Counted from the first letter of the stretch, positions 660 through 17,100 are shown. The stretch is DNA of 51,144 nucleotides from Bacteroidales bacterium (GCA_038245405.1 JBBRSO010000005.1:1-51144), one strand, 5' to 3'. Numbers and translations: made by a program. Notes: generated by a model not told the origin, from the sequence alone.

Positions 660-1616
660 ATGGCAAAAATTGTGATACAGACTGCTATATATATTGAGGA
701 AGAAACATTAAGCTTATGTAATTGCACCTTGTGTCCCAGACATTGTAAAGTTAACCGTTTTGACGGGCCCGGGGGATATTGCAAAACGGATGCAGGTATG
801 AATATTGCTTCAATCTGCATCCACAGAGGGGAAGAGCCTGTTATAAGTGGCAAAGAAGGAATCTGCAATATTTTTTTCACCGGATGTAATCTGCGTTGTG
901 TTTTTTGTCAGAATCATGAGATAAGTCAATGCAAATCAGGATCAGTAAAAGTGAATAATGATTTTTATCTGTTACTCGATCAGATTATGGAGATACTGGG
1001 AAGCGGTATCACTATGCTTGGCTTTGTTTCTCCCTCTCATGTTATTCCCCAGGTGAAAGCGATACTACGAGGCCTTCATGAACAGGGATTGAAGCCAATA
1101 ACAGTCTATAATACAAATGGATACGATACTTTTGAAACAATCAGGAGCCTCGACGGCCTGATTGATGTTTTTCTTCCCGATTATAAATATGTTACCCCCG
1201 AATTGGCAAAAGCATATTCCGATGCTTCAGATTATCCGGCTGTAGCTTTTAAAGCAATTAAAGAGATGCATTACCAGAAAGGATCGACTCTTTCACTCGA
1301 TGAAAACGGAAAGGCAGAGAACGGTTTGCTGATACGTCACCTTGTTTTGCCGGGGCATGCTGAAGAGAGTAAAAAAGTGCTGAAAACAATTGCTGAGGAG
1401 TTGTCTCCGGGAATTCATCTGTCACTCATGTCGCAGTACCATCCCACCACTGCAGTTTCTGATCATCCGATACTGAACCGTTCATTATATAAGTCTGAAT
1501 ATGAGGATGTTGTGTCAGAGATGGAGAGGCTAGGATTCAGGAACGGCTGGATTCAGGATCTGGATTCAAATGTTAATTACAGACCGGATTTTGGGAAGGA
1601 TCATCCATTTGAATGA
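660..1616 (+). CDS. Radical SAM protein, PflX-like (pyruvate formate-lyase activase-related family)
   Basis: 318-aa ORF. CNLRCVFCQN is the CxxxCxxC radical-SAM cluster motif. It is preceded by a Cys-rich N-terminus (CNCTLCPRHCKVNR), as in COG1313-type proteins. Confidence 0.75.
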   Translation: MAKIVIQTAIYIEEETLSLCNCTLCPRHCKVNRFDGPGGYCKTDAGMNIASICIHRGEEPVISGKEGICNIFFTGCNLRCVFCQNHEISQCKSGSVKVNNDFYLLLDQIMEILGSGITMLGFVSPSHVIPQVKAILRGLHEQGLKPITVYNTNGYDTFETIRSLDGLIDVFLPDYKYVTPELAKAYSDASDYPAVAFKAIKEMHYQKGSTLSLDENGKAENGLLIRHLVLPGHAEESKKVLKTIAEELSPGIHLSLMSQYHPTTAVSDHPILNRSLYKSEYEDVVSEMERLGFRNGWIQDLDSNVNYRPDFGKDHPFE

Positions 1617-1622
1617 GAAGAA

Positions 1623-1790
1623 TTACATGAACTTCTCCCGTTTCTGCAGATTAAACAACGCTACCAGCAGAAAAACCAGTGATCCGGCAACAAGGATAAT
1701 CCTGTTTTTAAATGTGATGATAGCCCAGGTTGTTTCATTTACGTCGCGCGGCAATTCGTAGGGATTAAGAAAGACATTCCACTGACTTTT
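1623..1790 (-). pseudogene. Displaced 3' end (last 55 codons plus stop) of the ABC-2 permease gene; left copy of a 168-bp direct repeat (attL-like)
   Basis: 1623-1790 matches 13398-13565 at 165 of 168 nt. The translation ...GKSQWNVFLNPYELPRDVNETTWAIITFKNRIILVAGSLVFLLVALFNLQKREKFM is identical to the C-terminus of the 238-aa permease. The body of the gene is missing here. The fragment ends 6 nt from the stop of the convergent radical SAM gene. Confidence 0.85.
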
Positions 1791-2009
1791 CCCTTTCAAC
1801 TTCAATTCTTTGTATGATTCTAGAAGCCGCCCGTGACTCTGGTATATATATCACATTCCCCTTTATAATTCTTTAGGATTTAACCTGTTTCAATCATTTG
1901 AAATATACATTTCTTTTACTTCCAATTTTCTATATTCTCATTTTGGATATATACAATACCTCACCAAATATTCATTATTTCATATGTCAACAAATCAAAT
2001 TCAGTCTTC

Positions 2010-2262
2010 GGATTCGAGTTGCAGTCAATTTTCGGCAAATTACGTGCGGTTATTTAATGACTAAAGCAAGACTTTTGCAGTAACCCGGAGCGCTTGGTCT
2101 TGCTGTTTTATGAAATATTGCTTTCTGCAAAGCCACGATTGCCGATTAAAATTTGGATGCCGCAGGATAGCATTAATCCATAGTGAGCGGTTGCGATTTA
2201 TGTTGCATACCTTATACCCATGCATTCTGCAATACAAACATAAAAAGAGCAACAATGCACAA
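2010..2262. repeat. Copy A of a ~240-bp noncoding element found immediately 3' of each (candidate) immunity gene
   Basis: The core 2078-2216 aligns to 3448-3586 with about 9 differences and one 1-nt indel. A 27-bp block at 2016-2042 matches 3419-3444. Copy A has a 35-bp insertion (2043-2077) relative to B. Similarity is weaker out to ~2262, against ~3625 in B. Confidence 0.7.
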
Positions 2263-2280
2263 AGAGAGTACCAAAGAATA

Positions 2281-3084
2281 TTACCACCATTTTTTTTGCT
2301 CTTCTTTTTTGGCACCTAGATTGTTTTGAATTATTCCTTTATAATAAATTTCCCAGCCCTTATTAAAGTATTTTGGATTCGGTGAAAACAGACCGGCTCC
2401 AATATCTAAATCTCCTGAATTTGGAATTCTCTTTTCACCCCAATTACACTTTTTCGGAATAGAGTCCTTATAGCTTGTCCAAGTTCCAACACAGAGATTA
2501 TTCGAAAAAGTATCACTTTCAATATCTGAACCATCATAGTAAATTTTATTATTATCAAATGAAAATTTAGTTTTCCAAATTCCTTGGAATATTCCTGAGC
2601 TATTCTGACTAGGATCTTGACAGAAATGAAATTTAGCTAACAAAATGTATTCTTGAGTAGAAAATCTTTTGATTGCTTCATCATCGTTTTGTTTCAAAGC
2701 TTCTTTATATAGATCTTCTCTTTCCTGATCCTTTATTTTCCTAATATGAATTATTTCAACTTCACCTAGAAATTGAAGGACATTTTCCATAAGTTTGGTT
2801 TTACCATATAAAAAGTATTTGTCTGGTTTATTCTTATCTTTAATTATTGTTAGATATCTAATTTTTAATCTTTGATAGTCATTGCCAACAAATCCTAAAA
2901 TTGCATTAGAATCAACAAGCATTGAACTGAAATCATAGGGGATGAATTTAACAAGAAGTTCTTGTTTTTCTAAATTTAACTGATTAATGGATTCAGATAA
3001 AAATCTATCGCTTTCCATCGAATTCTGAGAAAGACATGGTGTTATTCTCATAATTATTATAAAAAGAAGAATAAAACGTATCAT
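2281..3084 (-). CDS. Hypothetical exported protein (N-terminal signal-like MIRFILLFIIIMRITPCLSQ); candidate orphan immunity protein
   Basis: 267-aa ORF with a hydrophobic N-terminus. It sits directly downstream (12-nt gap) of a truncated toxin-like fragment inside the RHS island. I recognise no catalytic motif. Confidence 0.55.
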   Translation of the reverse strand: MIRFILLFIIIMRITPCLSQNSMESDRFLSESINQLNLEKQELLVKFIPYDFSSMLVDSNAILGFVGNDYQRLKIRYLTIIKDKNKPDKYFLYGKTKLMENVLQFLGEVEIIHIRKIKDQEREDLYKEALKQNDDEAIKRFSTQEYILLAKFHFCQDPSQNSSGIFQGIWKTKFSFDNNKIYYDGSDIESDTFSNNLCVGTWTSYKDSIPKKCNWGEKRIPNSGDLDIGAGLFSPNPKYFNKGWEIYYKGIIQNNLGAKKEEQKKWW

Positions 3085-3096
3085 AATTCTATTTTT

Positions 3097-3354
3097 TTAA
3101 AATCCAAAAATGATGTTTAAAGGATTAATGTCTCTTATTGTTAAAGTTCCTAAATTTTTTCCAAATAATGTTCTAAGCTTTCCAAAAATAGTTGAGCTTG
3201 ACCATACGGCATAATTTCCATCAACCATTGAATACGATTTACCGGGTAAAAAACATCCTAATGTATCAAAATGATAATTTCCAGTATGTATTAATATGCC
3301 TCTGCTTAATTGCACTTCGGCTTTTGAAATTATGTAACAATTAAGATGACCCAA
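3097..3354 (-). pseudogene. 5'-truncated DUF5675-like fragment (orphan module remnant)
   Basis: The 85-aa frame contains GILIHTGNYHFDTLGCFLPGKS, which I recall as the IHxGNxxxDTxGC signature of DUF5675-type proteins (full length ~130-140 aa). The track start is a TTG directly after an in-frame TGA, so the N-terminal third is missing. Repeat copy B abuts it upstream. Confidence 0.45.
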
Positions 3355-3411
3355 TGCTCAGTCTCTAAGTGCTCCCGGATACTCTTGTGCCTGACATGTT
3401 TAAGGCTTCTC

Positions 3412-3625
3412 GCCGCTGGAGTTGCAGACAATTTTGGCAAATTAAAACAGTAACTCCGGAGTGCTTGGTCTTGCTGTGTCATGAAATATTGCTTTCTGCA
3501 AAGCCACGATTGACGATTAAAATTTGGATGCCGCAGGCGAGCATTAATCCATAGTGAACGGTTGCGATTTATGTTGCATACCTTATGCCTAATGTATTGT
3601 GCAACGCAACAAACATATTGCAACC
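3412..3625. repeat. Copy B of the ~240-bp noncoding element
   Basis: See copy A. Copy B starts ~8 nt after the stop (3633-3635) of the 237-aa gene, just as copy A starts ~19 nt after the stop (2281-2283) of the 267-aa gene. Confidence 0.7.
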
Positions 3626-3632
3626 CGAACCC

Positions 3633-4346
3633 CTATTTACTCGTAAAATTTATTGTTTTGCAGTGTATTAATTCATTATAACGTGTAAAGCCCATAAACT
3701 TTAAAGGAGGTTTAAATGGAAGTTTAATAATGGTATTTTTAGTGAAACCCTCGGTTTCATAATATTCATTCTTATTAATTTTAGATCCGTGACATTCTAC
3801 TTTGTATTTACCATGATACTTTTTAAAACATGTATATTCATATTTAAATGTATATGACTCATTAGGTCGAAGGAAAATAAGACCACCTGTTGAAAACATT
3901 GCTACCTCCAACTTGGAAAGTAGAATAGGATATTCAATAGGGCTAATATTATCCCTCTTATTCAATCTCAAATATTCGCTAATTAAAAAATCCAATAAAG
4001 TTGAATCGACTTTTTCAGGTCTTGGATAATTAAGAATAGCGGCGATTCTATGATTTGTTTGATCCAAGGAATCGAATTTAGGGGGGTCCGGGATTGTTAA
4101 ATCATTAAAATTGTATAAGAATTCAGCATCAACTCGTTTTCCATTGTAGGTAACATCTATTCTATTACTTACATCAGTATATAAATACACCGAATCATCC
4201 GAAAGATTACTTAGTTTTAAGAACAAAGTATAATCTGAATATTTTAATTCTGCAACAATTGGATTATGATTTGCAACAATATCATTAGTAGGGGATATCA
4301 TGCAATCAATTAAATAGGTCATAATAATTAAAAAAAGGTAAGCCAT
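3633..4346 (-). CDS. Hypothetical protein, candidate cognate immunity protein of the RHS C-terminal toxin
   Basis: 237-aa ORF. Its ATG (4346-4344) overlaps the last 41 nt of the RHS gene. The hydrophobic N-terminus MAYLFLIIMTYLIDC is lipobox-like. The position immediately 3' of a polymorphic-toxin gene is the classical immunity slot. Confidence 0.55.
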   Translation of the reverse strand: MAYLFLIIMTYLIDCMISPTNDIVANHNPIVAELKYSDYTLFLKLSNLSDDSVYLYTDVSNRIDVTYNGKRVDAEFLYNFNDLTIPDPPKFDSLDQTNHRIAAILNYPRPEKVDSTLLDFLISEYLRLNKRDNISPIEYPILLSKLEVAMFSTGGLIFLRPNESYTFKYEYTCFKKYHGKYKVECHGSKINKNEYYETEGFTKNTIIKLPFKPPLKFMGFTRYNELIHCKTINFTSK

Positions 4347-7300
4347 AATTATTTTGTTTAGTTATTAAATAAGGTTCAATTTTTAGAAAAGATCGATTTT
4401 TTGATAGATCATAATTACTCCATTTTAAGGCTGCGGTTTTGAAAGGTTTCCAATCTGAATTTTGACTGTGTTGGTAGCCGGCTTGCCACATATATGCAGC
4501 GTATTCAGACATATTCTTGTTAAAATCTAATCCAAATTTCTCGAAATGGGCAACATGAATGAATTCGTGTCCCATAGTTAAATATAGATGTCCTAAACTT
4601 TTATGAGAACCTTCCCCAAAGTAAATTTGATACTTTCCATCTATCAACTGGTTTGAAGTGAAGCCCCATGCAGTTACACTCCCTGTGGAGTTCGCTTCTA
4701 CTATTTCGTTATTATAAAACATATCTAGCTTATCTTTATAAGTATAATTTGGAAAATAGGTTTTCTGAAACCCATATAAATCATAATCTGCAGATAGTTG
4801 CGTTGAGCCTGTCTGTTCAAACTCTACTTCATCCATCCTTAAGGCATGATTATAGCTCCTTCTGTATTTATTAAACTTTATTTTGTTTTCTAACTGTTGG
4901 CCCATGTGCCAACCAGAAATCCCACTTTGCACCAATGTCACGTATGTATTAGCATTTTTCCAGTCCCATTTGAGGGGATTAAACTCAAAATTATTAACCA
5001 TTGATGTATTTATATACATATTTGCTAACATCACAATTGCGGTAATAATAAACTCACCATCTGGATCAGCATACTTTAATGGATTATTGAGGCAGTAAGA
5101 ATATCTGTTGAAATTCTTTGTTATGTCGGGTGACTGAACATAATTATCGGGGCTGAGAAACATTGCTATTAGTGGATCATAAACTCTTCCGTTCATGTTT
5201 ATGAGGTCAAACTGATTTAAGTGTTCATGACCGGTAAAACCTCTATCGAACAAGTGTGTAGTAGATACATTTGTAAAGGTCCAGTCATCAGGATTCCGCC
5301 TCCTACCCCAGGGATCGAAGCTTAGTCTTTCCAAAACTGCTCCCGATGGGTCTGTTATTACATCAAAAGAACCAAGAAAATCTGAATGTATGTAATATTT
5401 ATTCCATTGATCATTCTTTTGTTCAAGAATTGCAGTAAGACCTGTCGGAGTTGAAATATAATAAAGCTCTCTTATACTATTATCCGCACCGATCTCTTTT
5501 TCATAATTTCCTAAAGCAAAAAACTTTGTTTTAACAATATTGCCATTCAAACTATATTCTGTCTTTACTCTCTGCTCATCGGGGCCATAAGTAAAGGTCA
5601 ATAGCTTAGTATCTAATGACGTAGAATTAGTCAACGAAGAAATTTTATTAAATTTTGTATACTCAATACTCTGATCAGTTAAACCTGATTCGTAACCGGA
5701 CAGACTATTTATGCTATCAAGACGGTGAACTAATGAACTTTGATGGTATTGATATGATCCGATCCCCGACTTTGACAAAATATTTCCTTTGCCAGACTCA
5801 TCATATGTATTTGCAAGAGGATATCCGCTTACGCCATAAGTTAAGAGTCTATTCAAGTGATCATATGTAAAATTTTCCTCAAGAAAGTTAATAGAAGAAT
5901 TGATTCCTTTCCGCTTCATAATATTTCCATAAATAGGATCAAAGTCATAATCCCAGTTTTGAATCCAGGTAGAACCAAGCTTAGATGCCTTTTTATCGAT
6001 AAAGCCATTTACATCATTTAAAATTACTGTGTTTATTCCATTTCCATATGTGTAATTATCTATCTGTCCGTACTTATTCATGCTAGTTGCATCCCAGACT
6101 GCCTGATTATTAGCTTTTACCTGGTAGGGATAGCCATAGTTATTAAAACCAGTTTCAACTGTGACTTCATTATTTATTACCTCTTTATTTATATTTCCAT
6201 AGTCATCGTAAAAATAATTTGAAGTAAATGAATTGTTATCTATTGTTTCTGTTTTTGTAGAAATGCGATTAAAAGCATCAAATGTAAATGATTGAGTTTT
6301 ATTTGACACTGAAATTGATGTCAATAATTCACTTACCGGATCATAAATATTTGTTGTAGTTTCACCTCCAAGCCATGTCTTGTGATCAATTCTTCCCAAA
6401 GCATCATAAACGATTGTTGACTTGTTCAACATTGCATCGGTCTGATTAACAAGTTCTCCTAATCCATTATAGTCATACTGAATGGTCTTAGCGTCAATAT
6501 CATGCAACTCTTTCTGAAAACCATAATCGTCATAATCTATTGTAGTTGCGCCTGAGGGTGATAAAATTGTTTTTGCTTTTCCCTCAGCGTTGTAATGGTA
6601 AGAAATTTCTCCACCTGGGTCTGTGGATTTGCATAATAATCCTGAAGCATCATTTTCTTTCTTATAGATTTGTTCATTTTTTGTTATCGTAGTTTCTAGG
6701 CCATTATAAGTATAGCTTGTTGCTGTTCCAGATGGATAAACTGTCTCTGTGGTTAATTGTCCGATATGATCATCATCGTAAGAAAATTTAATATATTGAT
6801 CTCTTGAATTCCCTTCAAAATACGGCATGTATGATTTATCAACACGGCTTTTGGAGTCATATACCTTATCGTTGACAAGATAAGTTCCATCAAATGATAG
6901 AATCTTAGATCTTACCTCTTTGCCAAGAAAATCAAAGTATGAAATTTTTGTTGGTTTATGCGGGGATTCTGATTTAGTAAAATAAAGTTCACCTATTCCA
7001 AGTGCATTATACGACCATCCCTTGGAATTAATTATTGTTTGTCCATCTGGATATTGAACTCCGGTATTTACACCAAAAGCATCATATTGGTATGAAGTTC
7101 TAAGATTTGAATAGTCAAATTCTTCAAGAAGATTTCCAGTTATTGGATCATAACCATATTTAAGAAAATGATTGATTGAGTTGTACTTCTTATAAATAAA
7201 CCGATTTAATACTGGTTCGTATTCAAATGTGTTTGATCTGGTTATAGATCCGCATGTTACACTGGAGGTTAAAATATTGCCAAATTCGTCATAAGTGAGT

Positions 7301-10300
7301 GAAGTTTCAACTGAAGGGGATGCCCCGAAAAGTTTAATTTCCTTTTTCAACAAACCATTTTCAAAGTATTCATAAGATTTTGAACGAGTGATTGATTCTG
7401 CACCTCTTGTATATGCAATCGAAGAGGAAAGGGGCTCTCCGAGGGAATTATACTCAGGATATGATTCATAAATCTGAGAAACAACGGTTCCTGAAGAGGT
7501 TTTTGCTTTTGAAGTTTTCGAAGTCAGGTTACCATCGTTTGCGATTATAGTAGCAACCTCAGTTATTGTATTATTTATTTTATTTTCAGCAGTTGATAAA
7601 GGAATATATGAAAAATGCCTCTTACTATTATCAAGAGAAATATCAACCGGGGCCAGGGAAGTTGTTTCAGATACTAGTATATTGTTGATATATTGTTTTG
7701 AATCAAATTGATACATATTATAGTATGTCGTACCAAAACGGAATAAATCTTCCGATTTTGTCAAATTAATAAGATCTTCTTCTTTTAATTTTAAGAATCC
7801 GAGAATACCTCTTCCCTGTAGGTGAATCATGAGATCTTCGTAATAATAATTTGTATTTGTAAAAGGTATTGTATTCCCAGGACCAAAAGACTGAATATTT
7901 TCAACCAAGTAAATAGGTAATTTAAATTTTGGTGTTGGAAATCCGAAATTGCTTGTTGAATTACTAAATGAAATGCTTTTAGGTAGAACTCCATATGTAA
8001 TGGTCGATCGTATATTAAGGCCATTTGAAATTTCAGTTAATAACCTTGATTTATCATCTGGCATATAGCGGATAATTTTAGAAACAGTAATTTCACCCGC
8101 TGATTTTTCTCTTAAATAGAGATCGATTTGACCATCTCCATCCAAATCGGTTACAGATAAGTCGTTCCCGCCAGCACCATCTGAGCTCCATCCAATTTCT
8201 CTTTCTGTGAAGCTATTACCATAATAGTAATACGCGTAAATGGTTGTATTTGTCCCAAGCATAAAAGGCCATGTAGATTCATGTATGATATCGCCTTTAC
8301 CATCACCGTTTAGGTCAGCAATATAAAATTTTGTCAATTGACCACTATTAGGCGAAAAAGATACATCTATGAAGTTTTTTCCTGTTGAAAATAATAATTT
8401 GGTCCCTCCTGTATTGTACCCCAAAATATCCGTTTTACCATCCCCATTTACATCACCGAAGCAGTATTTATCATAATCAAAGAAAATTGGAGTAATCAAT
8501 TCCGTTAACTGATTAGCAATAAAGTCATATCCATAAATGTGAATATGGCTATTACTATCTAAGAAATAAATATCAGTTTTTCCATCACCATTAAAATCAA
8601 TTGGTCCCATTTTATTTGAAAAATTTGTAGAGCCAAAAGAGCTTGGTAAACCTATGCCATTCCAAATCTGATTTTTATCCGGTGTATAGAAAAAGCATTC
8701 GCTTTTTCCATTACCATCATAATCCCCTGGAATCATAGCCCATATAGCCGAAACAGCTATTGGAGGGTCCGAAACCAAGTCAATCCCATTAAAATGGTAA
8801 AAGCTGAATATATTTTGAAATTGATCCGTAATATCCCCATTCTGGTAATTTGGATTGTTTGTATTATCCACCGATTCAACTGTATATAAATCAGATTTAC
8901 CATCACCATCAAAGTCAATAATACTACCACCATCGAATTTTCCCCAACTATAAGTTTTACCGTGCCCAAGGTTTATTGAATATGGATTTATAGGAATTTC
9001 TTTAAAAGGTTCGAAATTTGTACCATCCTGGTTTAAATATACTTTAATTTTGTCTGAAGACGAATATGTTGTTTTTACCGGAATTACTACAAGATCACTT
9101 TTCCCATCTCCATTAATGTCGGCAAAATTAAAATCATTGTCCCCAATTGTAGTTAAATAGGAATCAGGGTAACTTGAAGGAGAAAAAAAACCATATCCAA
9201 ATATTGTCTTATTAAACTTTAAACCTGTTGACGCGCTTTCTTCAATTTCGAAAAGATAAGAATATGGATCAAAAAAACCGTGGCCATAATTAAATGCATA
9301 TGTTCTTACTGTAGACATCTGACATTTAACCATTATTTTAGCTATCAGTATGTCATTGTTTATTTCAACTCCTGCACTAAAATATTTATATGGATCGGAT
9401 CGTTTCTTATATTCGATAACTATTTGATTATAAGGATTAAGATTAGCATTATCATTCCCAGTATATTCAATAGTATTTAATAATGGCATTCCTGATGACG
9501 GGTCTCGCAAATAGGTATACTTAATGTAATTACCATTTGTATCCATCTGTTTAGTTAACAGCCATGTAAGCTTTGTTGTGCTGTTGATTTCACTTACGTA
9601 ACTATTATCGGCATTTCCATACTCGAGTGTAGAATTGTCTTTTAAATTTTTTACTTCAAACCAGCTTGGACCATTTCCACTTGTGCCATGCATAATCGAC
9701 TCGGTAAAAGTCTCCTGTTCTGTTTTATATTTAGATCCATCGGCACCCTGACTTCCTCCATTTGTTTCTAGAATAAGTAGATTACCATCTATTGCATATT
9801 GATCTGCGGAAACCATTTCAATGGCTTTCACTACCTGATTGTTATAGTAAGGATTAGCAACTCTCGATATTGAAGATAACCCTGCCAAATTCCATCCTAG
9901 TCCTAAAAGACCATTCCCTGACTGACTATTATATTGCAAACTTAGATTCGGTTTTACCCCGTTTGTTCCCGGGGAACAAAAAAGTGGAATTGAATAGGAC
10001 AGGCCTCCAAGCTGGGTTGTAGTAACACTCCCAGCTGTTGTTCCAACTTCCAATTCTGTATTGATAGATCTGTATACGGAAGGATCGGGAATTTGTTCCA
10101 AATAACCAACCTCTGGGAAATCTGTTGTCAGCTTGACAACATCTGAATACGTCATATCACAATCTGAATTGATTTGACACCTGTAGTAATCATTCTGGAA
10201 AGCTTCTGATCCCTTGATTATCAGAGTTGGTGTTTGAAAATTTTCAGCTGGTAATCCCGAGAGATCTGTCCATGAGTTAACTCCATCCGCTGATACCTGC

Positions 10301-12267
10301 CATTGATATTGAAGATTGGGACCTGTGGCAATGACTGTGAATGAGGCATCTTCATTTAATGTAACACTTGAGTTGACAGGTTGAGTAACAATAGAAGGCT
10401 GTGCTTTAATAAATACATCCTTTAGTGTAGGATAAGCTGACGGGCATGAAAATCCGTTTGTATAGGAAACTGAAACTGATTGATTACCGGTTGCATTCCA
10501 TGTAACGCTTATTGTTTTTGATGTTGAACCCGAATTAATGGTGCCACCTGAAGATATTGTCCAAGTGTAACCGGTCATTCCGCTTTCTGTGGTATACGTA
10601 ACGCCTGATGTTCCGACACATACAGATGCACCGCCTGTGATTGTTGGAGATGGTCTTTGATTAACTGTTACAGAATAATTAAGAGGAGATACAGCAGTAC
10701 ACCCATAGGAATTTGTATAATTTAATAAGATTGATTGAGAACCAGCAGCAGTCCAGTTTACATTTACAGAACTTGTTCCTCCTCCTATTGTAACATACCC
10801 ACCTGTTGGAATTGACCACGTATAGCCTGTCATTTCTGTTTGAGTTGTATAAATTACTCCAGATGTCGCTTCACAAACAGTTTGTAAACCAGTATTAATT
10901 TGTGGGCTAGGTCTGGGATTTACTGTAACATTTTTAACATAAGAAGAAGTAGCTGTACACCCATTTGGGTTTGTATAGTTAACGGTAACTGTCCGAGCGC
11001 CGGCAGTATTCCATCTAACAGTAACTGTATTATTTGTTGAGCCGCCACCTGATGTTAAAGTACCACCACTTGAAACTGACCATGTATAACCTGTCATGCC
11101 TGTCTGTGTTGTATAGGTTACCCCTGATGTCGCTTCACAAACAGTTGATAACCCATCAATTGTTGGTGTAGGAAGTGAGTTAACAGTTACATTCTTGCCA
11201 GTAGGATTTGCAGCCGGACAGGAATACCCATTTGTATAGCTTACGTTGACTGTTTGAGCTCCTGCATTATTCCAGGTAACACTGATGGTATTTGAAGTTG
11301 AACCTGAATTAATGGTCCCCCCGGCAGAAATCGTCCAAGTGTAACCTGTCATTCCACCCTCAGTGGTATATGTGACGCCAGAGGTACCTTCACAAATTGA
11401 AGCAAATCCAGTAATTGAGGGAGAAGGTCGTGGATTGACCGTTACAGGATATACTGTGGTATTCGGACATGAATAACTATTGGTATAGGTAACGTTTACA
11501 CTCCTAGAACCCGCGGCTGTCCAGTTTACATTTATGGTATTTGTATTGGAAGGACCATGGATATATCCCCCTGAAGGAATTGTCCATGAGTAACCCGACA
11601 TACCTGTGGGTACAGAGTAAGTTACACCTGTTGTCCCTTCACATACAGTTGAAGAACCGGAAACTCCAAGGGAAGGAACAGGATAGACTGTCACTTCCAC
11701 ATTTGCACACGAGGAAGAGGTACAGCCATTCACCCACCTTGCATAATATTTTGTTGTAGAGGTTGGCGCAGTGATTGTAAGCGGTGAACCTGTTCCAACC
11801 TCACCCGACCCGCAGCTGGAAGAATACCATCTGAGGATATCCCCCGATCCTCCGCTGGCGGTTAGCGTAATCGTGGAATAAGCGCCAGGACAGTAACCAC
11901 TATGGTTTGACGATGCAGATGAAGGCGCTGTGGGAGAGCCACATGCCTGGTTGACCGTTAGCGGCCTGTTGCCAATCAACATGTTACCGCTTCGGGCGGA
12001 ACCCGAATTTGAGGGAACAGTAACTGTAACCATGTACCCGTTTTTAGTGTAAGTTGCAAACCCGGTATAGTTCGATACATTATAATTCGTGCACCCTCCC
12101 TGTGTGGTTACCGCTACGGTGTATTGTCCCCCGGACCCTGATGCATTGATCGTGGAGGGACTTATCACTGTTACGGTACATTGTCCAAAAATATTACTGT
12201 TAAGCCCAGACAGAATTAGTAAAGATATTATTATCACAAGGATCTTTTTCACCGGGATTGTTTTCAT
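4306..12267 (-). CDS. Secreted RHS/YD-repeat polymorphic toxin, TcB/TcC (BC)-like. Order: signal peptide, Ig/PKD-like repeats, SpvB-like domain, 7 FG-GAP/VCBS repeats, RHS shell, HExxH C-terminal toxin
   Basis: 2653-aa ORF. Signal peptide: MKTIPVKKILVIIISLLILSGLNSNIFGQ. Five ~85-aa tandem repeats (GVTYTT..GMTGYTW.I..GG....G.....I.V.W...G...V.V.YTN). SpvB-type motif: GGLSYSIPLFCSPGTNGVKPNLSLQYNSQSGNGLLGLGWNL. Seven DxNGDGKxD repeats. Many YD repeats (YDxxGN, YxYD). RHS core end: NRYSYCLNNPLKYADPDGE (DPDGE at 5053-5067). A 248-aa tail follows, containing HEFIH (4555-4569). Confidence 0.9.
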   Translation of the reverse strand: MKTIPVKKILVIIISLLILSGLNSNIFGQCTVTVISPSTINASGSGGQYTVAVTTQGGCTNYNVSNYTGFATYTKNGYMVTVTVPSNSGSARSGNMLIGNRPLTVNQACGSPTAPSSASSNHSGYCPGAYSTITLTASGGSGDILRWYSSSCGSGEVGTGSPLTITAPTSTTKYYARWVNGCTSSSCANVEVTVYPVPSLGVSGSSTVCEGTTGVTYSVPTGMSGYSWTIPSGGYIHGPSNTNTINVNWTAAGSRSVNVTYTNSYSCPNTTVYPVTVNPRPSPSITGFASICEGTSGVTYTTEGGMTGYTWTISAGGTINSGSTSNTISVTWNNAGAQTVNVSYTNGYSCPAANPTGKNVTVNSLPTPTIDGLSTVCEATSGVTYTTQTGMTGYTWSVSSGGTLTSGGGSTNNTVTVRWNTAGARTVTVNYTNPNGCTATSSYVKNVTVNPRPSPQINTGLQTVCEATSGVIYTTQTEMTGYTWSIPTGGYVTIGGGTSSVNVNWTAAGSQSILLNYTNSYGCTAVSPLNYSVTVNQRPSPTITGGASVCVGTSGVTYTTESGMTGYTWTISSGGTINSGSTSKTISVTWNATGNQSVSVSYTNGFSCPSAYPTLKDVFIKAQPSIVTQPVNSSVTLNEDASFTVIATGPNLQYQWQVSADGVNSWTDLSGLPAENFQTPTLIIKGSEAFQNDYYRCQINSDCDMTYSDVVKLTTDFPEVGYLEQIPDPSVYRSINTELEVGTTAGSVTTTQLGGLSYSIPLFCSPGTNGVKPNLSLQYNSQSGNGLLGLGWNLAGLSSISRVANPYYNNQVVKAIEMVSADQYAIDGNLLILETNGGSQGADGSKYKTEQETFTESIMHGTSGNGPSWFEVKNLKDNSTLEYGNADNSYVSEINSTTKLTWLLTKQMDTNGNYIKYTYLRDPSSGMPLLNTIEYTGNDNANLNPYNQIVIEYKKRSDPYKYFSAGVEINNDILIAKIMVKCQMSTVRTYAFNYGHGFFDPYSYLFEIEESASTGLKFNKTIFGYGFFSPSSYPDSYLTTIGDNDFNFADINGDGKSDLVVIPVKTTYSSSDKIKVYLNQDGTNFEPFKEIPINPYSINLGHGKTYSWGKFDGGSIIDFDGDGKSDLYTVESVDNTNNPNYQNGDITDQFQNIFSFYHFNGIDLVSDPPIAVSAIWAMIPGDYDGNGKSECFFYTPDKNQIWNGIGLPSSFGSTNFSNKMGPIDFNGDGKTDIYFLDSNSHIHIYGYDFIANQLTELITPIFFDYDKYCFGDVNGDGKTDILGYNTGGTKLLFSTGKNFIDVSFSPNSGQLTKFYIADLNGDGKGDIIHESTWPFMLGTNTTIYAYYYYGNSFTEREIGWSSDGAGGNDLSVTDLDGDGQIDLYLREKSAGEITVSKIIRYMPDDKSRLLTEISNGLNIRSTITYGVLPKSISFSNSTSNFGFPTPKFKLPIYLVENIQSFGPGNTIPFTNTNYYYEDLMIHLQGRGILGFLKLKEEDLINLTKSEDLFRFGTTYYNMYQFDSKQYINNILVSETTSLAPVDISLDNSKRHFSYIPLSTAENKINNTITEVATIIANDGNLTSKTSKAKTSSGTVVSQIYESYPEYNSLGEPLSSSIAYTRGAESITRSKSYEYFENGLLKKEIKLFGASPSVETSLTYDEFGNILTSSVTCGSITRSNTFEYEPVLNRFIYKKYNSINHFLKYGYDPITGNLLEEFDYSNLRTSYQYDAFGVNTGVQYPDGQTIINSKGWSYNALGIGELYFTKSESPHKPTKISYFDFLGKEVRSKILSFDGTYLVNDKVYDSKSRVDKSYMPYFEGNSRDQYIKFSYDDDHIGQLTTETVYPSGTATSYTYNGLETTITKNEQIYKKENDASGLLCKSTDPGGEISYHYNAEGKAKTILSPSGATTIDYDDYGFQKELHDIDAKTIQYDYNGLGELVNQTDAMLNKSTIVYDALGRIDHKTWLGGETTTNIYDPVSELLTSISVSNKTQSFTFDAFNRISTKTETIDNNSFTSNYFYDDYGNINKEVINNEVTVETGFNNYGYPYQVKANNQAVWDATSMNKYGQIDNYTYGNGINTVILNDVNGFIDKKASKLGSTWIQNWDYDFDPIYGNIMKRKGINSSINFLEENFTYDHLNRLLTYGVSGYPLANTYDESGKGNILSKSGIGSYQYHQSSLVHRLDSINSLSGYESGLTDQSIEYTKFNKISSLTNSTSLDTKLLTFTYGPDEQRVKTEYSLNGNIVKTKFFALGNYEKEIGADNSIRELYYISTPTGLTAILEQKNDQWNKYYIHSDFLGSFDVITDPSGAVLERLSFDPWGRRRNPDDWTFTNVSTTHLFDRGFTGHEHLNQFDLINMNGRVYDPLIAMFLSPDNYVQSPDITKNFNRYSYCLNNPLKYADPDGEFIITAIVMLANMYINTSMVNNFEFNPLKWDWKNANTYVTLVQSGISGWHMGQQLENKIKFNKYRRSYNHALRMDEVEFEQTGSTQLSADYDLYGFQKTYFPNYTYKDKLDMFYNNEIVEANSTGSVTAWGFTSNQLIDGKYQIYFGEGSHKSLGHLYLTMGHEFIHVAHFEKFGLDFNKNMSEYAAYMWQAGYQHSQNSDWKPFKTAALKWSNYDLSKNRSFLKIEPYLITKQNNYGLPFFNYYDLFN
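4309..5052 (-). other. C-terminal variable toxin domain of the RHS protein (putative zinc metallopeptidase, HExxH)
   Basis: This is the sequence after the conserved PxxxxDPxGE core boundary. It contains LTMGHEFIHVAHFEKFG, an HExxH motif. Confidence 0.5.
10401..11679 (-). repeat. Five tandem ~255-bp coding repeats (PKD/Ig-like domains) inside the RHS gene
   Basis: Protein repeats lie at about aa 197-622. Units 2 and 5 are the most similar (TISAGGTINSGSTSNTISVTWNNAGAQTVNVSYTNGYSCP vs TISSGGTINSGSTSKTISVTWNATGNQSVSVSYTNGFSCP). The similarity is also visible at DNA level. Confidence 0.8.
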
Positions 12268-12364
12268 AAATGGGTATCAGGTTAATCATGTATTAATGTC
12301 TTGTAATCTCTATTTGAAGAAATTTTAACTTTATATACTGAGATGAAATATTAATCAGACCTTT

Positions 12365-12484
12365 CTAAATTTTTGAGTGTCCCTTTATATCATATTTCTT
12401 AACTTCCTCTTTGAAGAGCGATCCGTCCTCATTAATAAACTTCCATGTTCCCACGGGGTTACCCATATCATAGGTTCCTTCAAA
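12365..12484 (-). pseudogene. Fragment of a YwqK/MORN-repeat antitoxin-like (immunity-type) gene
   Basis: Minus-strand frame LFEGTYDMGNPVGTWKFINEDGSLFKEEVKKYDIKGHSKI*, bounded upstream by a stop. The G.W..Y.E.G.L..E..Y..G pattern is the YwqK-family/MORN-variant repeat. Only ~1.5 repeats remain. Confidence 0.45.
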
Positions 12485-12991
12485 GAGTCATATATTTTAT
12501 TGTCGATCATGACACGGAGTATATAGATTCCATCTTTATACCTGTTTTATGTCTATCTCAGTATGATTCCCAATATTTTTTTTGACCATAATTTCGAAGC
12601 CGGATAAATCATATACTCTCAGTTCATTTAGAGAGTTTAACGGAATATTTGATATGTCAATTTTTATCAGCCCTTTATTGGGGTTTGGATAAACAACAAT
12701 GGTTGTTTTATCCTCTTCCGACACCAATTTTTCTTCCTTTGCCTTATCTGAATCCAAGACTTTGTCGGTTATTACTTGATCTGATACCAGGGCTTTATCA
12801 GTTTTTGATGAGCCCATAGAATATTCAAATGATCTTGGGTTAGGATTGCCTGGAGGGCTTATAATCTCAACTACCAATATTCTGCTTTTCCTGTTTCCAT
12901 TATCATCGTAGGTAAAAGCTACAGTTTGACCAGAAAGTCTCATTATAAATAATAATAAAAGATTTACGATGATGATTCGTTTATGATTCAT
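12478..12991 (-). pseudogene. Small exported YD-repeat protein with a T9SS C-terminal sorting domain, frameshifted inside the CTD
   Basis: The ORF 12536-12991 carries a signal (MNHKRIIIVNLLLLFIMRLSGQ), one YD repeat (FTYDDNGNRKSR) and the start of a Por_Secre_tail-type CTD (VVYPNPNKGLIKIDISN...LRVYDLSGFEIM...EIDIKQV*). The expected CTD ending, KDGIYILRVMIDNKIY, is encoded in another frame at 12537-12478. Confidence 0.55.
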
Positions 12992-13360
12992 TGCGTTAAA
13001 ATTTATAGAAAAAGTAGATTGAAAAATTCAAATTCAATTTACCAAACCCGGGGTGTACCCAGGTTGGGTTTGTTTAATATCAAACACATGTGTTTCAACG
13101 ATCCTTTTTTAAATCAGACAATCGTTTAATCGGGATAGGGTAGTTTTTGTTACCTTAATAATTACCAAAAAGGCAATAGAACCTGATTTTATTCTATAGT
13201 AACACATTCATTTTCATATAATTAAAACCATATTATAATTTTTAAAAATTTTTGCTCAGACAAAAAATATATTTGAAAATGAACACATTTGAACAATTTT
13301 CCATGGCACGGATTGCAAATCCGCGCCATCTATGGGTTCCCAGGGGAAGGAGAAGCCCAC

Positions 13361-13379
13361 TTTTCCCCCTTGGGGGAAA
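13361..13379 (-). terminator. Hairpin (TTTCCCCC-nn-GGGGGAAA) 19 nt downstream of the permease stop codon, on island-side DNA
   Basis: Palindrome ttttcccccttgggggaaa. No clear U-tract follows on the minus strand, so terminator function is tentative. Confidence 0.3.
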
Positions 13380-13397
13380 TAAGAAAGGGGGTTCTTT

Positions 13398-13565
13398 TTA
13401 CATGAACTTCTCCCGTTTCTGTAGATTAAACAACGCTACCAGCAGAAAAACCAGCGATCCGGCAACAAGGATAATCCTGTTTTTAAATGTGATGATAGCC
13501 CAGGTTGTTTCATTTACATCGCGCGGCAATTCGTAGGGATTAAGAAAGACATTCCACTGACTTTT
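13398..13565 (-). repeat. Right copy of the 168-bp direct repeat (attR-like); forms the functional 3' end of the ABC-2 permease gene
   Basis: 165 of 168 nt identical to 1623-1790. Homology starts exactly at the stop codon and ends at codon ~183 of the permease. Confidence 0.85.
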
Positions 13566-14114
13566 ACCAAGAGCATCGCTGAGTGTCAGGAAAAAGAGAC
13601 CGAAGATGATCATTAATACTGCTGTTCCATTTCCATTTCTGACAACTGTAGAAAGCATGAATGCCATAATACCAAGAAAAATTACAGGAAACATTACCTG
13701 CATTGTCACATTCACAAACCGGAACTTTACGATGAGCACTGAAGAAAGAAATGTAAATACGAGCATTATCAGGAAAGCCACGATAAAGATCAGTAATACT
13801 CTCACAAGCCATACTTTATACCTGTAATTCGGAATACCGAACAGGATCTCAATTGTTCGGGCATCCTGGTCATTCTGTATACCAAAAACGGTGGGATAAA
13901 AAATCAGCAGGACTCCTGAAAACAGGAAAACGCCATACAGATCACGCATATTTGAAACATCCTGGTCGAACACATAGATAACCGATAAGCCGAGATAAAA
14001 CACTACTGAGCCAGCCAGGAACCAGATAAATCTGTTTGCAAAAATTATCCTCAGGTTATATACAACCATTTTTTGTACCAGATTAAGAAAATTGTATAAG
14101 TTTCGCGATCTCAT
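13398..14114 (-). CDS. ABC-2 type transporter permease
   Basis: 238 aa with ~6 hydrophobic helices. It has an ABC-2-like conserved acidic loop (QDARTIEILFGIP). Its ATG overlaps the stop of the upstream RND::ABC gene (ATGA at 14111-14114). Confidence 0.7.
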   Translation of the reverse strand: MRSRNLYNFLNLVQKMVVYNLRIIFANRFIWFLAGSVVFYLGLSVIYVFDQDVSNMRDLYGVFLFSGVLLIFYPTVFGIQNDQDARTIEILFGIPNYRYKVWLVRVLLIFIVAFLIMLVFTFLSSVLIVKFRFVNVTMQVMFPVIFLGIMAFMLSTVVRNGNGTAVLMIIFGLFFLTLSDALGKSQWNVFLNPYELPRDVNETTWAIITFKNRIILVAGSLVFLLVALFNLQKREKFM

Positions 14115-17100
14115 ATGCTTGCGTTTACATTGTTTTGTGGACTAAGGATCTCTTTTCTTCTTAGCAGCCAGAGATAAGCATCTTCAAGGTTTGGTGTTGC
14201 ATTAATAGCTCCTTCCCATGGTGATATTTCAGAAATAACCCTCACTCTGATATTTTCACCTTCCGACATGTGATGCACTACAAGATGGCTCTCCACAAAT
14301 GTTCCAAAATCTTTTGCAGGAATGTTGAATTGCCATACATGGCCTTCTGCTTCCTTTGTCATAGCAATTGGTTCCCCGAAATACCTTAGCTTGCCTTTAT
14401 TCAGTACTGCAACTTTTTTACAGGAGCTCGAGATATCCTCAATAATATGGGTTGAAAATATTACTATCCTGTCGCGGCCGAGCTCAACAAGCAGATTCCT
14501 GAATCTGATGCGTTCCCGTGGATCGAGACCAGCGGTGGGTTCATCAACAACAAGAATACGTGGCAGATGAAGAAGAATCTGTGCAATTCCCATTCTTTGC
14601 TTCATACCACCGGAATAGGATCCGATTTTTTCATGACGCCGCTCTTCCATATGAACAGATTTGAGAACATATGTCACGCGTTCTTCCCTGGTTTTGACAT
14701 CGGTTATATTTTTGAGCATAGCCTGGTAATGAAGGTAATCATGAGCAGTCATGTTCTCATAACTTCCAAATTCCTGCGGTAGATATCCAATCAACCCCTG
14801 CAGCTCTTCCCGCATCTTCTGTGTATCGAGACCATTTATCCACACCTTTCCATAGCTCTGTTCAAGAATACCGCAGATAATTCTCATAAGTGTAGTTTTT
14901 CCCGCGCCATTCGGGCCCAGCAGACCGAACATACCGTTTCCGATATTCAGTGAAACGCAACTCAATGCCTTGAATGGCTTCTTCTTCTTACCAATAAGTG
15001 GAACAACTGCTACCACCTTATAGATATTCTTCCTCAAACCTTTGAATCTTCCTTCAAGCCTGTAAATGTCGATGTTTTCTTTTGTAAGCTTCTGTCCGGT
15101 TTTAAAGATAAACAACCCGGTGAACCATAGAAAACCAAGTATTATAACAATAACGATATTGTCCCATTTGTGATAAAACCATAATAGATTCAGAAACGGG
15201 ATTATCCAGAAGATGACTGAATCAAAGATTTTTGAGAATCTGGCCAGCCACCTCTTTTTACCACCGGAAGTAAGATTGTCTATCAGCTCACTGAATGAAG
15301 TCCAGATAGATGACAGAAAAAACCATGTTACAATTGCGAAAACAAAAATCCAGAATCCTTTCTGCAAATAAAAATATGTGAAGTAGAAAATATATCCAGC
15401 CAATGGAATCTGCCAGCCTATCTGAGTCATATCCTTTAAAGACCTGAATTGTTTTTGCAATCCCAGTCTTTTCCTTATACGTGCTCCTGCCTTCCATTCG
15501 CGTGACCATCTGTTTTCCCGTTCATAGATCTTCACCAGACTTTGTATCCTGATGTTGATACTTTCGTCAGGGGAGATTACGGTTTCCCTCGCTTTTTTCA
15601 GGCTGTTCATCACAAACCATGTTCCCGCGGGGACTAATATTATTGAGATGATGGAGGTAATAAGCTTCCAGAGGAACTTATCGACATTCAGGTAGATTAG
15701 CGCTATAAGGAAAGTAAATAGGATAATCTGGATTGTTTTGTTTTTCCAGGGAAGCGAATTGAACCATTTAAGTGCATTTTCGAGACCCGTATAGAATGTG
15801 GGAATAAAAACCAGTGTAAGAAGGGTACTCAGAGTAAGTCCGCCAATCACGGTAATGGCAAATGAAGCACCGATAACTGAAACAAATTCAGCCTTGCCCA
15901 TCGCCAGCGGGATCATAGCAATCACAGTTGTAGCTGCCGTAATCAGGATAGGACGCAATCTGGAAACACCGGCTGTCATGAGAGCTCTTTGTACCCTGTA
16001 GCCACGCTTTCTTAAAATATTTGTATAGTCTATGAGAATAATTCCATTATTCACAACCACTCCCAGCAAGATTAAAAAGCCTGTGAGTGTATTGAGGTTT
16101 AAGAGTGAGTTCCCGGTCAGTATAAGAGCAACGAGTGAGCCAAGAGCTGCAAGAGGGATGCTGAACATAAGAACCACAGGGGTTGCAAGCGATTCAAACA
16201 CTGAAGCAAGGATCATGTAGATCAATAGGAATGCGACACCGATTATGAAATACAGATCTTTCCACTTATCTTCTTCATGAACAACTTCGACGGCAATACC
16301 GGCAGGTATATTCAACCCTGATACAATTGATTCAATATCGGCCCTTGCACCTGCCAGCAAGTCTTTTGAGTTTTTTATCTCCTCATTAAAATCGTATGTA
16401 ACGGTAATTCGTTTTTCCTGGTTTTCCCTGTGAATGCTGCCCATTCCTGAAGCAAATACAATTTTTGATAATTCATCCATTTCGATTACTGCACCATTGC
16501 TCCCATTAACCAGCAGGTGTTTCAGGTCGTCTATTGTTTTGTCTTTTTTCTCTTTCGATTCGCCAGGCTCATCAGCATACTTAATCATAATATCATAATT
16601 ATCTGTGCCCTGTCTGAACTGTATTCCTGAAGAATACTCGCGACCGAATGTTGAAAGTGCCGAGGAAAGATTTAATAATGTAAAATTGTTTCTTCCCAGG
16701 TAATCCATGTCAAAGAGGAGATGAACCTCAGGTTTATTTTCCTGGATATTTATTCTGGAAGTGTTCATTGAAGAAAGACTTCCTACTGAAGCTTTAATAT
16801 CATTAGCCAGATTTTTCATCTGTACAAAATTCTGGCCTTTTATGATTACACTTTCTTTGGTGGAACCTAACCCGAGCAAATTCATAAATTCATCTCCCTC
16901 GCCATCTCCGCCTCCCATGTTATCACCGCCTGAAAATCCACCGCTGGAAGATTGCTCGTCCATGCTTATTTCAGCCGATGTGATATTCTTTACCTTCTTA
17001 AGGATATCACTCTTAATTTCAGGAAGTGTCCTTTTGCTATTCTTATCCCATTCTTTCTTAAGATTAATTGTGATAGTGGCTTTTTCCTCTTCAATACGAC

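Follow-up and report, generated by a model that had tools for sequence, protein, structure and literature searches.

How did an 11.5-kb toxin island come to lie between two core genes that are direct neighbours in related bacteria? This question is raised by a 51,144-nucleotide (nt) stretch of DNA from an uncultured Bacteroidales bacterium (GCA_038245405.1, JBBRSO010000005.1:1-51144), which was analyzed as a whole and is referred to below as the window. The island carries a Rhs-type toxin gene, separates a radical SAM gene from a gene encoding a membrane permease, and is bracketed by two copies of the permease gene's 3' end. In the original prediction this anatomy was taken as the footprint of an element that had inserted into the 3' end of a gene while carrying a replacement 3' end, as do islands that target tRNA genes or other gene 3' ends. 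Our analysis indicates that the island is an insertion and, at about even confidence, we favour a recombinase-independent route in which DNA from a conspecific donor entered by homologous exchange in the permease 3' end, completed by an illegitimate joint at 1793/1794. The features that define the two ends of the island are the following.

660-1616, plus strand: radical SAM gene (activase-like; Pfam Radical_SAM and Fer4_12), the native left flank, convergent with the permease gene.
1617-1622, no strand: spacer of 6 nt between the radical SAM stop codon and the orphan permease stop codon, a junction of the empty-site type (read from the sequence).
1623-1793, minus strand: orphan left copy, comprising the final 55-56 codons and the stop codon of the permease gene and lacking its upstream part (repeat, alignment, tblastn).
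1794-2014, no strand: AT-rich, non-coding left end of the island, about 220 nt, with stops in every frame.
13302-13397, no strand: spacer of 96 nt resembling native permease-downstream spacers, which travels with the right copy (REP-like motif, palindrome).
13398-13568, minus strand: right repeat copy, the 3' end of the intact permease gene (repeat finder, alignment).
13398-14114, minus strand: intact gene for a 238-amino acid (aa) membrane permease, putatively of the ABC-2 type (list of open reading frames (ORFs), orthologues).

A repeat finder applied to the 51-kb window returned a 171-nt direct repeat of 98% identity (1623-1793 and 13398-13568) as the sole long-range repeat. Within its 168-nt core (1623-1790 and 13398-13565) exactly three mismatches were counted, all of them third-position synonymous transitions, as follows.

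Difference 1: left 1743 C, right 13518 T; Asp16, GAC/GAT.
Difference 2: left 1680 A, right 13455 G; Ser37, TCA/TCG.
Difference 3: left 1647 G, right 13422 A; Leu48, CTG/CTA.

Translations of the two copies are identical over 55 residues plus the stop codon, and by tblastn the peptide identity reaches 56 residues (left copy, 1793-1626). The extra codon, GGG on the left and GGT on the right, encodes Gly in both and may add a fourth synonymous difference at 1791; past this position the matching bases amount to 2 nt, which could be due to chance. The left copy is an orphan whose stop codon (1623-1625) lies 6 nt from that of the convergent radical SAM gene (1614-1616), and the right copy completes an intact ORF whose start overlaps the stop codon of the gene upstream. 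Orthologues of this permease are 71-96% identical at the aa level and some are named by JGI as an ABC-type permease subunit; the permease itself has no match in Pfam or NCBIfam. The original prediction had described 165 of 168 identical positions, the same last 55 codons plus stop in both copies, three exclusively synonymous changes, an orphan left copy and a right copy that completes the gene, and each part of this description was borne out.

Three random substitutions in this frame would all be synonymous with a probability of 0.011 when every change is treated as equally likely and of 0.043 when only transitions are considered. This pattern fits functional alleles of different strains, in agreement with the earlier proposal that the copies had diverged under coding constraint in different lineages. 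A comparison of the copies with orthologues, which had also been called for, revealed that they are each other's closest relatives, with three mutual differences versus 25-28 differences in 168 sites against the nearest orthologues. Judged from these sequences, a copy-to-copy divergence of 1.8%, all of it synonymous, fits conspecific alleles better than long decay after a local duplication.

The same data bear on whether the permease end was instead duplicated in place, by a local duplication or a replication template switch that took place in a single lineage no later than the island's arrival, with the copies then diverging in situ. Such a history needs no donor allele, short duplications are known at illegitimate joints, and outgroups polarize two of the three differences as derived in the non-functional left copy and one as derived in the right. 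It would, however, leave the orphan unconstrained, and all three (possibly four) differences are nonetheless synonymous (P = 0.011-0.043). Moreover, the repeat contains exactly identical runs of 25, 32, 62 and 46-49 nt, and recombination requirements imply that a 98% repeat at 11.6 kb spacing should recombine away long before its copies had diverged so far; the spacers downstream of the two copies are also different, and both types have counterparts in relatives. We consider duplication in place to be distinctly improbable. Outgroup polarization was also tried as a means of telling donor from recipient and, with the derived changes split two to one between the left and right copies, is uninformative for that purpose.

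Evidence that the DNA between the repeats is an insertion comes from the corresponding locus in relatives. With one genome scanned per species, an orthologous permease was found at 80 loci, all from uncultured Bacteroidales/Bacteroidota. A radical SAM orthologue is within reach in 60 of these loci and is convergent in every one, with a stop-to-stop gap of -5 to 481 bp, i.e. within 500 bp, in 46 loci and of 1-8 kb in the remaining 14. Spacers as short as that of the window, from -5 to 16 nt, are found in loci L048, L054, L062, L063, L067, and L073. The closest relatives (95-96% aa identity), which were identified in a large protein collection and are represented by contigs L081 and L082-L085, likewise show an empty site, followed by rimP-nusA-infB; a RimP reading frame also lies to the left of the radical SAM gene in the window (1 to about 450, minus strand), with the same synteny in L082 and L083. 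The contig of a further relative, L086, stops 60 nt past the permease stop codon, so its site is unreadable. As the permease and radical SAM genes are directly convergent in relatives, comparison of these loci indicates that their adjacency is the norm and that the 11.5 kb between the repeats is an insertion. The original prediction had depended on the existence of relatives with this directly convergent arrangement, and its reading of the locus as the site of an insertion stands.

None of the 80 species loci contains a second copy of the permease end, and no integrase was found among the sampled downstream genes of 21 related loci that have inserts or rearrangements at this position. The sampled neighbours beside the permease are housekeeping genes or insertion sequences (IS) of the IS21 and IS4 types. 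With no duplicated permease end and no neighbouring integrase, this gene end thus gives no sign of being an attachment site in the clade. As to the inserts themselves, the spacer of L007 (11096-15148) holds an IS21-family pair, composed of an IstA-like rve transposase and an IstB ATPase, together with an IS4-type DDE transposase, and the gaps elsewhere contain ordinary housekeeping genes, including those for an M1 peptidase, dehydrogenases, and a Na+/H+ exchanger.

The DNA beyond the two stop codons provides a second line of evidence on the origin of the copies. The right copy is followed by 96 nt (13302-13397) that include a C5/G5 palindrome, TTTCCCCC-TT-GGGGGAAA, at 13361-13379 and a single arm of a repetitive extragenic palindrome (REP)-like motif, GGCRCGGATTNCAAATCCGYGCC, at 13305-13327. 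The window has no other occurrence of this motif, and 1.32 Mb of related loci contain just five; four of the five form inverted pairs in the permease/radical SAM spacers of L081 (10755-10821) and L006 (3131-3194), at a distance from the permease stop codon similar to that in the window. When the island was compared with the related loci by blastn, the REP-like element was the sole match. The 96 nt look like a native-type spacer brought along by the right copy rather than like island DNA, and two copies with different spacers look like two alleles of one locus. Homology between the copies would accordingly end at the stop codon because each copy comes with its own spacer allele. The original prediction had placed island DNA, including a hairpin at 13361-13379, directly after the right copy; the hairpin is present, and the first 96 nt appear to be native-type spacer instead. 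A scan for terminators and promoters returned nothing beyond this palindrome. The REP-like arm, paired in L081 and L006, is single in the window and stands at the edge of island-specific DNA, and the island may have entered, or been cut, inside such a pair.

At the left copy the situation is different in kind. In the alignment all similarity is gone at the repeat boundary, which leaves an abrupt, non-homologous joint at 1793/1794, and the adjoining end of the island (1794-2014) has no match in the related loci. The right copy passes seamlessly into the body of the permease gene, placing that junction within continuous homology to the recipient gene. A further reading is that the contig joins sequence from island-bearing and island-free strains of one population, with the orphan copy residing on a different molecule than the island. 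The source is apparently a metagenome, strain mixtures exist at this locus in the sister species, and no second assembly of the junctions was found. A misjoin in an assembly graph, however, needs shared sequence, and no more than 2 nt are common to the island and the permease body at 1793/1794. The long genes on the contig are intact, arguing for good consensus quality, and it is evident from the three single-nucleotide polymorphisms (SNPs) that separate reads underlie the two copies. As the joint lacks shared sequence, we give very little credence to an assembly chimera.

The main ORFs of the island, down to 61 aa, and ORFs of at least 120 aa elsewhere in the window were scanned against the Pfam, NCBIfam, and PHROG families. 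No integrase, transposase, excisionase, phage gene, or conjugation gene was found in either set, and neither a relaxase nor a recognizable remnant of a mobility gene was found between the repeats, consistent with the statement in the original prediction that no integrase, transposase or excisionase is visible there. Transposition was considered and rejected: a repeat search revealed neither inverted repeats at the ends of the island nor termini resembling those of transposons, and a target duplication of 168 nt is far too long. Searches of the region for tRNAs and Rfam families were negative, and the site is therefore not an attachment site of the tRNA type. The island is compositionally atypical, as a proposed comparison of island and flanks revealed, with a GC content of 0.349 versus 0.396 for the rest of the window and a tetranucleotide correlation with the rest of 0.895, versus 0.96-0.98 for control chunks of the same size.

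An integrative element of the e14 type could account for the locus if it had decayed, leaving a remnant resembling a cis-mobilizable element (CIME), or if it were mobilized in trans, with its recombinase and excisionase genes deleted or located elsewhere in the genome. In this scenario a site-specific recombinase would have inserted a circular element that bore, within its attachment site, a replacement for the permease 3' end. The anatomy of the island is essentially identical to that of e14 at icd, its composition is foreign, and elements that keep attL and attR after the loss of their integration genes form a recognized class (PMC5704250). An earlier imprecise excision could have picked up host DNA, which would account for the native-like spacer that follows the copy borne by the element, and another Rhs operon is found at the same gene end in L014. 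What speaks against such an element is the lack of any recombinase, excisionase, relaxase, or phage or conjugation gene, or remnant of one, between the repeats and of any such gene in the large reading frames of the window. In addition, real attachment sites are reused, and neither a duplicated permease end in the 80 loci nor an integrase among sampled neighbours was found; the copies are also 98% identical, well above the 92.7% of e14/icd. We regard an e14-type origin as unlikely but far from negligible, because its scar would be identical by construction, so that one sequence does not suffice to tell the two origins apart. The part of the original prediction that likened the island to tRNA- or 3'-end-targeting islands thus holds for anatomy only.

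Four observations lead us to favour recombinase-independent insertion: there is no recombinase or backbone remnant; the 80 loci contain no duplicated permease end and the sampled neighbours no integrase; the two copies carry two native-type spacers; and the differences between the copies look like those between alleles of conspecific strains. The donor, we infer, was a strain of the same species that carried the Rhs island downstream of its own permease gene and spacer, while the recipient would have had the usual empty arrangement of permease gene, 6 nt, and radical SAM gene, with no site-specific recombinase involved. One join would have arisen by homologous exchange in the terminal 168-171 nt of the permease gene, and the other would be the illegitimate joint at 1793/1794. 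Two routes could lead to this outcome. A donor fragment comprising the permease end, spacer, and island may have circularized and then integrated by a RecA-dependent single crossover of the Campbell type; alternatively, a broken permease gene may have invaded donor DNA in a one-ended manner and copied it, after which the copied strand would have been joined to the other broken end. By either route the intact gene would end in the donor-linked copy followed by the donor spacer, and the displaced 3' end of the recipient would persist as the orphan of 55-56 codons beside the radical SAM gene. The three, possibly four, synonymous differences would then be pre-existing differences between the donor and recipient alleles. 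The duplicated segment would be the homology arm, and its copies do differ as donor and recipient alleles would, by 3-4 synonymous SNPs and by two native-type spacers. As the repeats hold identical runs of 25-62 nt, recombination between them could also delete the island and restore the empty site.

Both joins have precedents. In Escherichia coli conjugation crosses with one-sided homology, most insertions were single crossovers of circularized molecules that duplicated 109-950 bp of the homologous locus (PMC3240628), and one-sided homologous recombination with an illegitimate joint at the far end has been proposed for Rhs and type VI secretion system (T6SS) effector arrays (PMC5361080). The original prediction had left three fates for the island, immobilized, mobilized in trans, or gained and lost by homologous recombination. 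Among these, homologous gain is the best supported and the site-specific options are less so.

Several points weigh against recombinase-independent insertion. An integrase acting on an element with a replacement 3' end would yield an identical final structure, and e14/icd is almost a twin of the locus. The copies differ by only three SNPs, which provide little statistical power, and the bases visibly shared at the 1793/1794 joint amount to a 2-nt GG, for which microhomology scoring needs the donor sequence. The nearest relatives have only about 85% DNA identity over the permease gene (100-103 differences in 672 nt). Protein look-ups and metagenome scans brought to light neither a donor nor a conspecific empty site, and neither junction was found in another assembly: the permease, the radical SAM protein, and two proteins of the island (orf267 and a small secreted protein, both described below) had no exact-match record, while an exact 28-nt repeat pattern and a profile search with the small secreted protein had no match in metagenome contigs. 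Divergence of the window permease from that of the sister species is uniform along the gene, 15-16% both in the last 168 nt and overall, and therefore no breakpoint is visible there. Finally, in L014, where the permease is 80% identical, the permease gene is likewise followed directly by a Rhs operon (4361-8898), composed of a 230-aa ORF, a small protein with a type IX secretion system (T9SS) tail, and an SpvB/FG-GAP Rhs gene within which the contig ends, such that neither the far end of the operon nor any duplication there is visible. The Rhs protein of L014 is only about 31% identical to that of the window. Two different Rhs operons at one gene end could be a coincidence or could mark a preferred entry site.

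Further support for homologous exchange at these gene ends comes from the population of a sister species. This species is represented by four contigs from four samples (L082-L085) that encode an identical permease protein. In pairwise comparisons, 17 of 17, 13 of 14, and 8 of 9 differences within the permease gene fall in its last 168 nt, and they begin sharply 133 nt before the stop codon. Over 1.8 kb, variation is almost entirely confined to three places: about 135 nt at the end of the permease gene, the spacer itself, which measures 20 or 108 nt, and the terminal 100-200 nt of the radical SAM gene. As variation clusters at these ends, the convergent gene ends act as recombination arms around a hypervariable spacer in natural populations. 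The convergent ends in L082-L085 thus form a sharp local hotspot of recombination, and in one 28-nt block nearly every synonymous site differs.

The clustering of sister-species diversity at these ends, together with the presence of a different Rhs operon there in another species, also allows a broader reading, in which the island is a recombinase-free cassette whose integration arm is the end of a conserved neighbouring gene. Such a cassette could loop out and re-insert among strains of a species purely by host homologous recombination, and the convergent ends would be a population-wide hotspot of exchange. We regard this extension as improbable.

The cargo of the island, whose features are listed below from left to right, is a Rhs toxin operon with several accessory genes and non-coding repeats.

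2015-2232, no strand: D3a, a non-coding repeat unit (core 2085-2218), 3' of orf267 (repeat search).
2281-3084, minus strand: orf267, encoding a signal-peptide protein of a widespread Bacteroidota family (homologue search).
3097-3354, minus strand: 5'-truncated DUF5675 fragment (PF18925, profile positions 60-110 of 114; phrog_1501).
3421-3600, no strand: D3b, the second non-coding repeat copy (core 3456-3589) (repeat search).
3633-4346, minus strand: 237-aa ORF that overlaps the end of the Rhs gene (ORF list).
4306-12267, minus strand: gene for a Rhs-type polymorphic toxin of 2653 aa (ORF list, Pfam/NCBIfam).
12536-12991, minus strand: gene for a small secreted protein with a YDxxGNR motif and a T9SS C-terminal sorting domain (Por_Secre_tail).

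The predicted Rhs protein contains, in order, a signal peptide, Ig_7, five PKD_6 domains, SpvB, FG-GAP, TcdB_mid_N, RHS/YD repeats, and a Rhs-associated core (residues 2318-2404), with RHS matches to PF05593, TIGR01643, and TIGR03696. Repeats and core precede a variable C-terminal domain, as expected of a Rhs polymorphic-toxin locus. The C-terminal ~250 aa (4309-5050, minus strand) follow a DPDGEF cleavage-type motif and contain HEFIH, an instance of HExxH predicted to be a zinc-metallopeptidase-like signature; this tail has no sequence match in Pfam, NCBIfam, PHROG, or the PDB. Among 5.8 billion proteins no close homologue of the Rhs protein was found in a search swamped by PKD-repeat proteins, in which the best match across the full architecture was 36% identical. 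For P0173 and P0210, the available context either stops at the far side of the island or does not include it. Judged by position alone, the 237-aa ORF is a likely candidate for the cognate immunity protein, and it has no family match in Pfam, NCBIfam, or PHROG.

The small secreted protein belongs to a group of T9SS-tailed proteins of about 150-160 aa with a signal peptide and one conserved YDxxGNR motif, which are encoded immediately upstream of a giant PKD/SpvB/FG-GAP/Rhs gene in three species and two contexts. Homologues lie directly upstream of Rhs genes in L014 (5220-5693) and L087 (9439-9921), and in L087 the two-gene module follows an unrelated operon. The pair may be a conserved module that links Rhs toxins, which have no sorting tail of their own, to the T9SS. 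In the window the small gene is frameshifted at its 3' end, with the end of the sorting domain, KDGIYILRVMIDNKIYD, resuming in another frame past the stop at 12536 (12268-12545, minus strand), and the gap to the Rhs start is 268 nt versus 24-79 nt in the homologous loci. The frameshifted gene is either a pseudogene or the product of a sequencing error.

The remainder of the cargo lies 3' of the immunity candidate. The protein encoded by orf267 has no match in Pfam, NCBIfam, or PHROG and has 98 homologues, the best at 56% identity. It is a possible orphan immunity protein; a link of its family to Rhs genes was considered and rejected, as the homologues are widespread and showed no Rhs linkage in the one long contig examined. 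The cores of the D3 repeat are 134 nt long and 94% identical, within a full unit of ~180-215 nt. D3 was also rejected as an RNA or coding element, with no Rfam match, fold z-scores of -0.6 and -1.4, and stops in all sensible frames. D3b lies 3' of the immunity candidate and abuts the truncated DUF5675 gene, of which only the C-terminal half of the family profile is present. D3b takes the place of the 5' half of this gene, and the D3 copies may mark the ends of successively acquired cassettes.

To the right of the island the window continues as core chromosome, with an RND efflux operon, lpxD-lpxC/fabZ-lpxA, suf, and queG. The gene translationally coupled to that of the 238-aa permease (14111-18880, minus strand) is a single 1589-aa ORF in which a complete AcrB-type RND permease (residues 2-1031) is followed by an additional membrane stretch and, at residues ~1300-1500, by a GldA-like ABC ATPase. 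This RND-ABC fusion is found at or near full length, with 70-91% aa identity, in dozens of the related species loci.

The locus is a clean natural example of a contact-toxin (Rhs) operon placed between two core genes without a visible mobility gene, and its scar is indistinguishable from that of an integrase-driven prophage such as e14. For tools that predict islands it carries a caution, namely that a direct repeat at a gene 3' end is not proof of site-specific integration. Given reads or conspecific genomes, it would also provide a testable case for determining what share of toxin-island traffic among strains proceeds by ordinary homologous recombination.

Of the known systems, e14 (and phage 21) at icd in E. 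coli K-12 is closest in anatomy. There, as in the window, the element lies between direct repeats that correspond to the final ~55 codons of a core gene (PMC13626634); the element-proximal copy supplies the end of the intact gene, and an orphan (the pseudogene icdC) is left on the other side. By our measurement the last 165 nt of icd lie inside e14 and a 165-nt icdC at the far end, with 12 differences of which 10 are synonymous, and the homology stops just past the stop codon, as it does in the window. In contrast to the window, e14 encodes intE, xisE, and phage genes and excises after SOS induction, whereas the island carries a Rhs toxin operon only and its repeat copies are 98% rather than 92.7% identical, with no amino acid change. 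More generally, the island shares with integrase-driven elements the 3'-end repeats, an intact gene restored by the element-proximal copy, and an unoccupied site in relatives, whereas no tyrosine or serine recombinase and, in the 80 loci, no reuse of the site was found. For these two reasons the island should not be filed as an integrase-driven element, although it may have originated as one. CIMEs, which are decayed integrative and conjugative or integrative and mobilizable elements (ICEs or IMEs) that kept attL and attR and lost their integration and transfer genes (PMC5704250), likewise have direct repeats that bound an island at a gene 3' end and no recombinase of their own. Unlike the island, they are recognized through a related ICE or IME at the same site and usually through gene remnants, neither of which was found in the window or in 86 related loci.

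Campbell-type integration and homology-facilitated illegitimate recombination resemble the window in combining one homologous with one illegitimate join, and the 168-171 nt of the repeat fall within the 109-950 bp of the laboratory duplications (PMC3240628). Those precedents are laboratory events on engineered substrates, whereas the event in the window is deduced from a single natural sequence. Rhs and T6SS effector-immunity arrays share with the island a large Rhs protein, a variable C-terminal domain, a downstream immunity candidate, and orphan-like fragments (PMC5361080); in the models for those arrays, however, the arm is conserved rhs, vgrG, or tap-1 sequence and the leftover an old immunity gene or toxin tip, whereas the arm duplicated in the window comes from the end of a core gene that is a neighbour of the toxin operon but unrelated to it. 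The toxin itself resembles Tc-toxin TcB-TcC and SpvB-FG-GAP-Rhs shells in its SpvB, FG-GAP propeller, TcdB middle region, RHS repeats, core, and variable tip. It differs from them in having an N-terminal signal peptide and an Ig/PKD array, with no TcA partner visible, and its relationship to Rhs cores of solved structure is only distant (E = 1e-13 to 1e-6 over ~150 residues). Taken together, these comparisons point to an insertion scar of a known type, unusual solely in coming without a recombinase gene, rather than to a system of a new class. The scar belongs with that of e14 at icd, the Rhs polymorphic-toxin locus carried as cargo is divergent but otherwise ordinary, and the likely route matches the single-crossover or one-ended homologous events observed in the laboratory.

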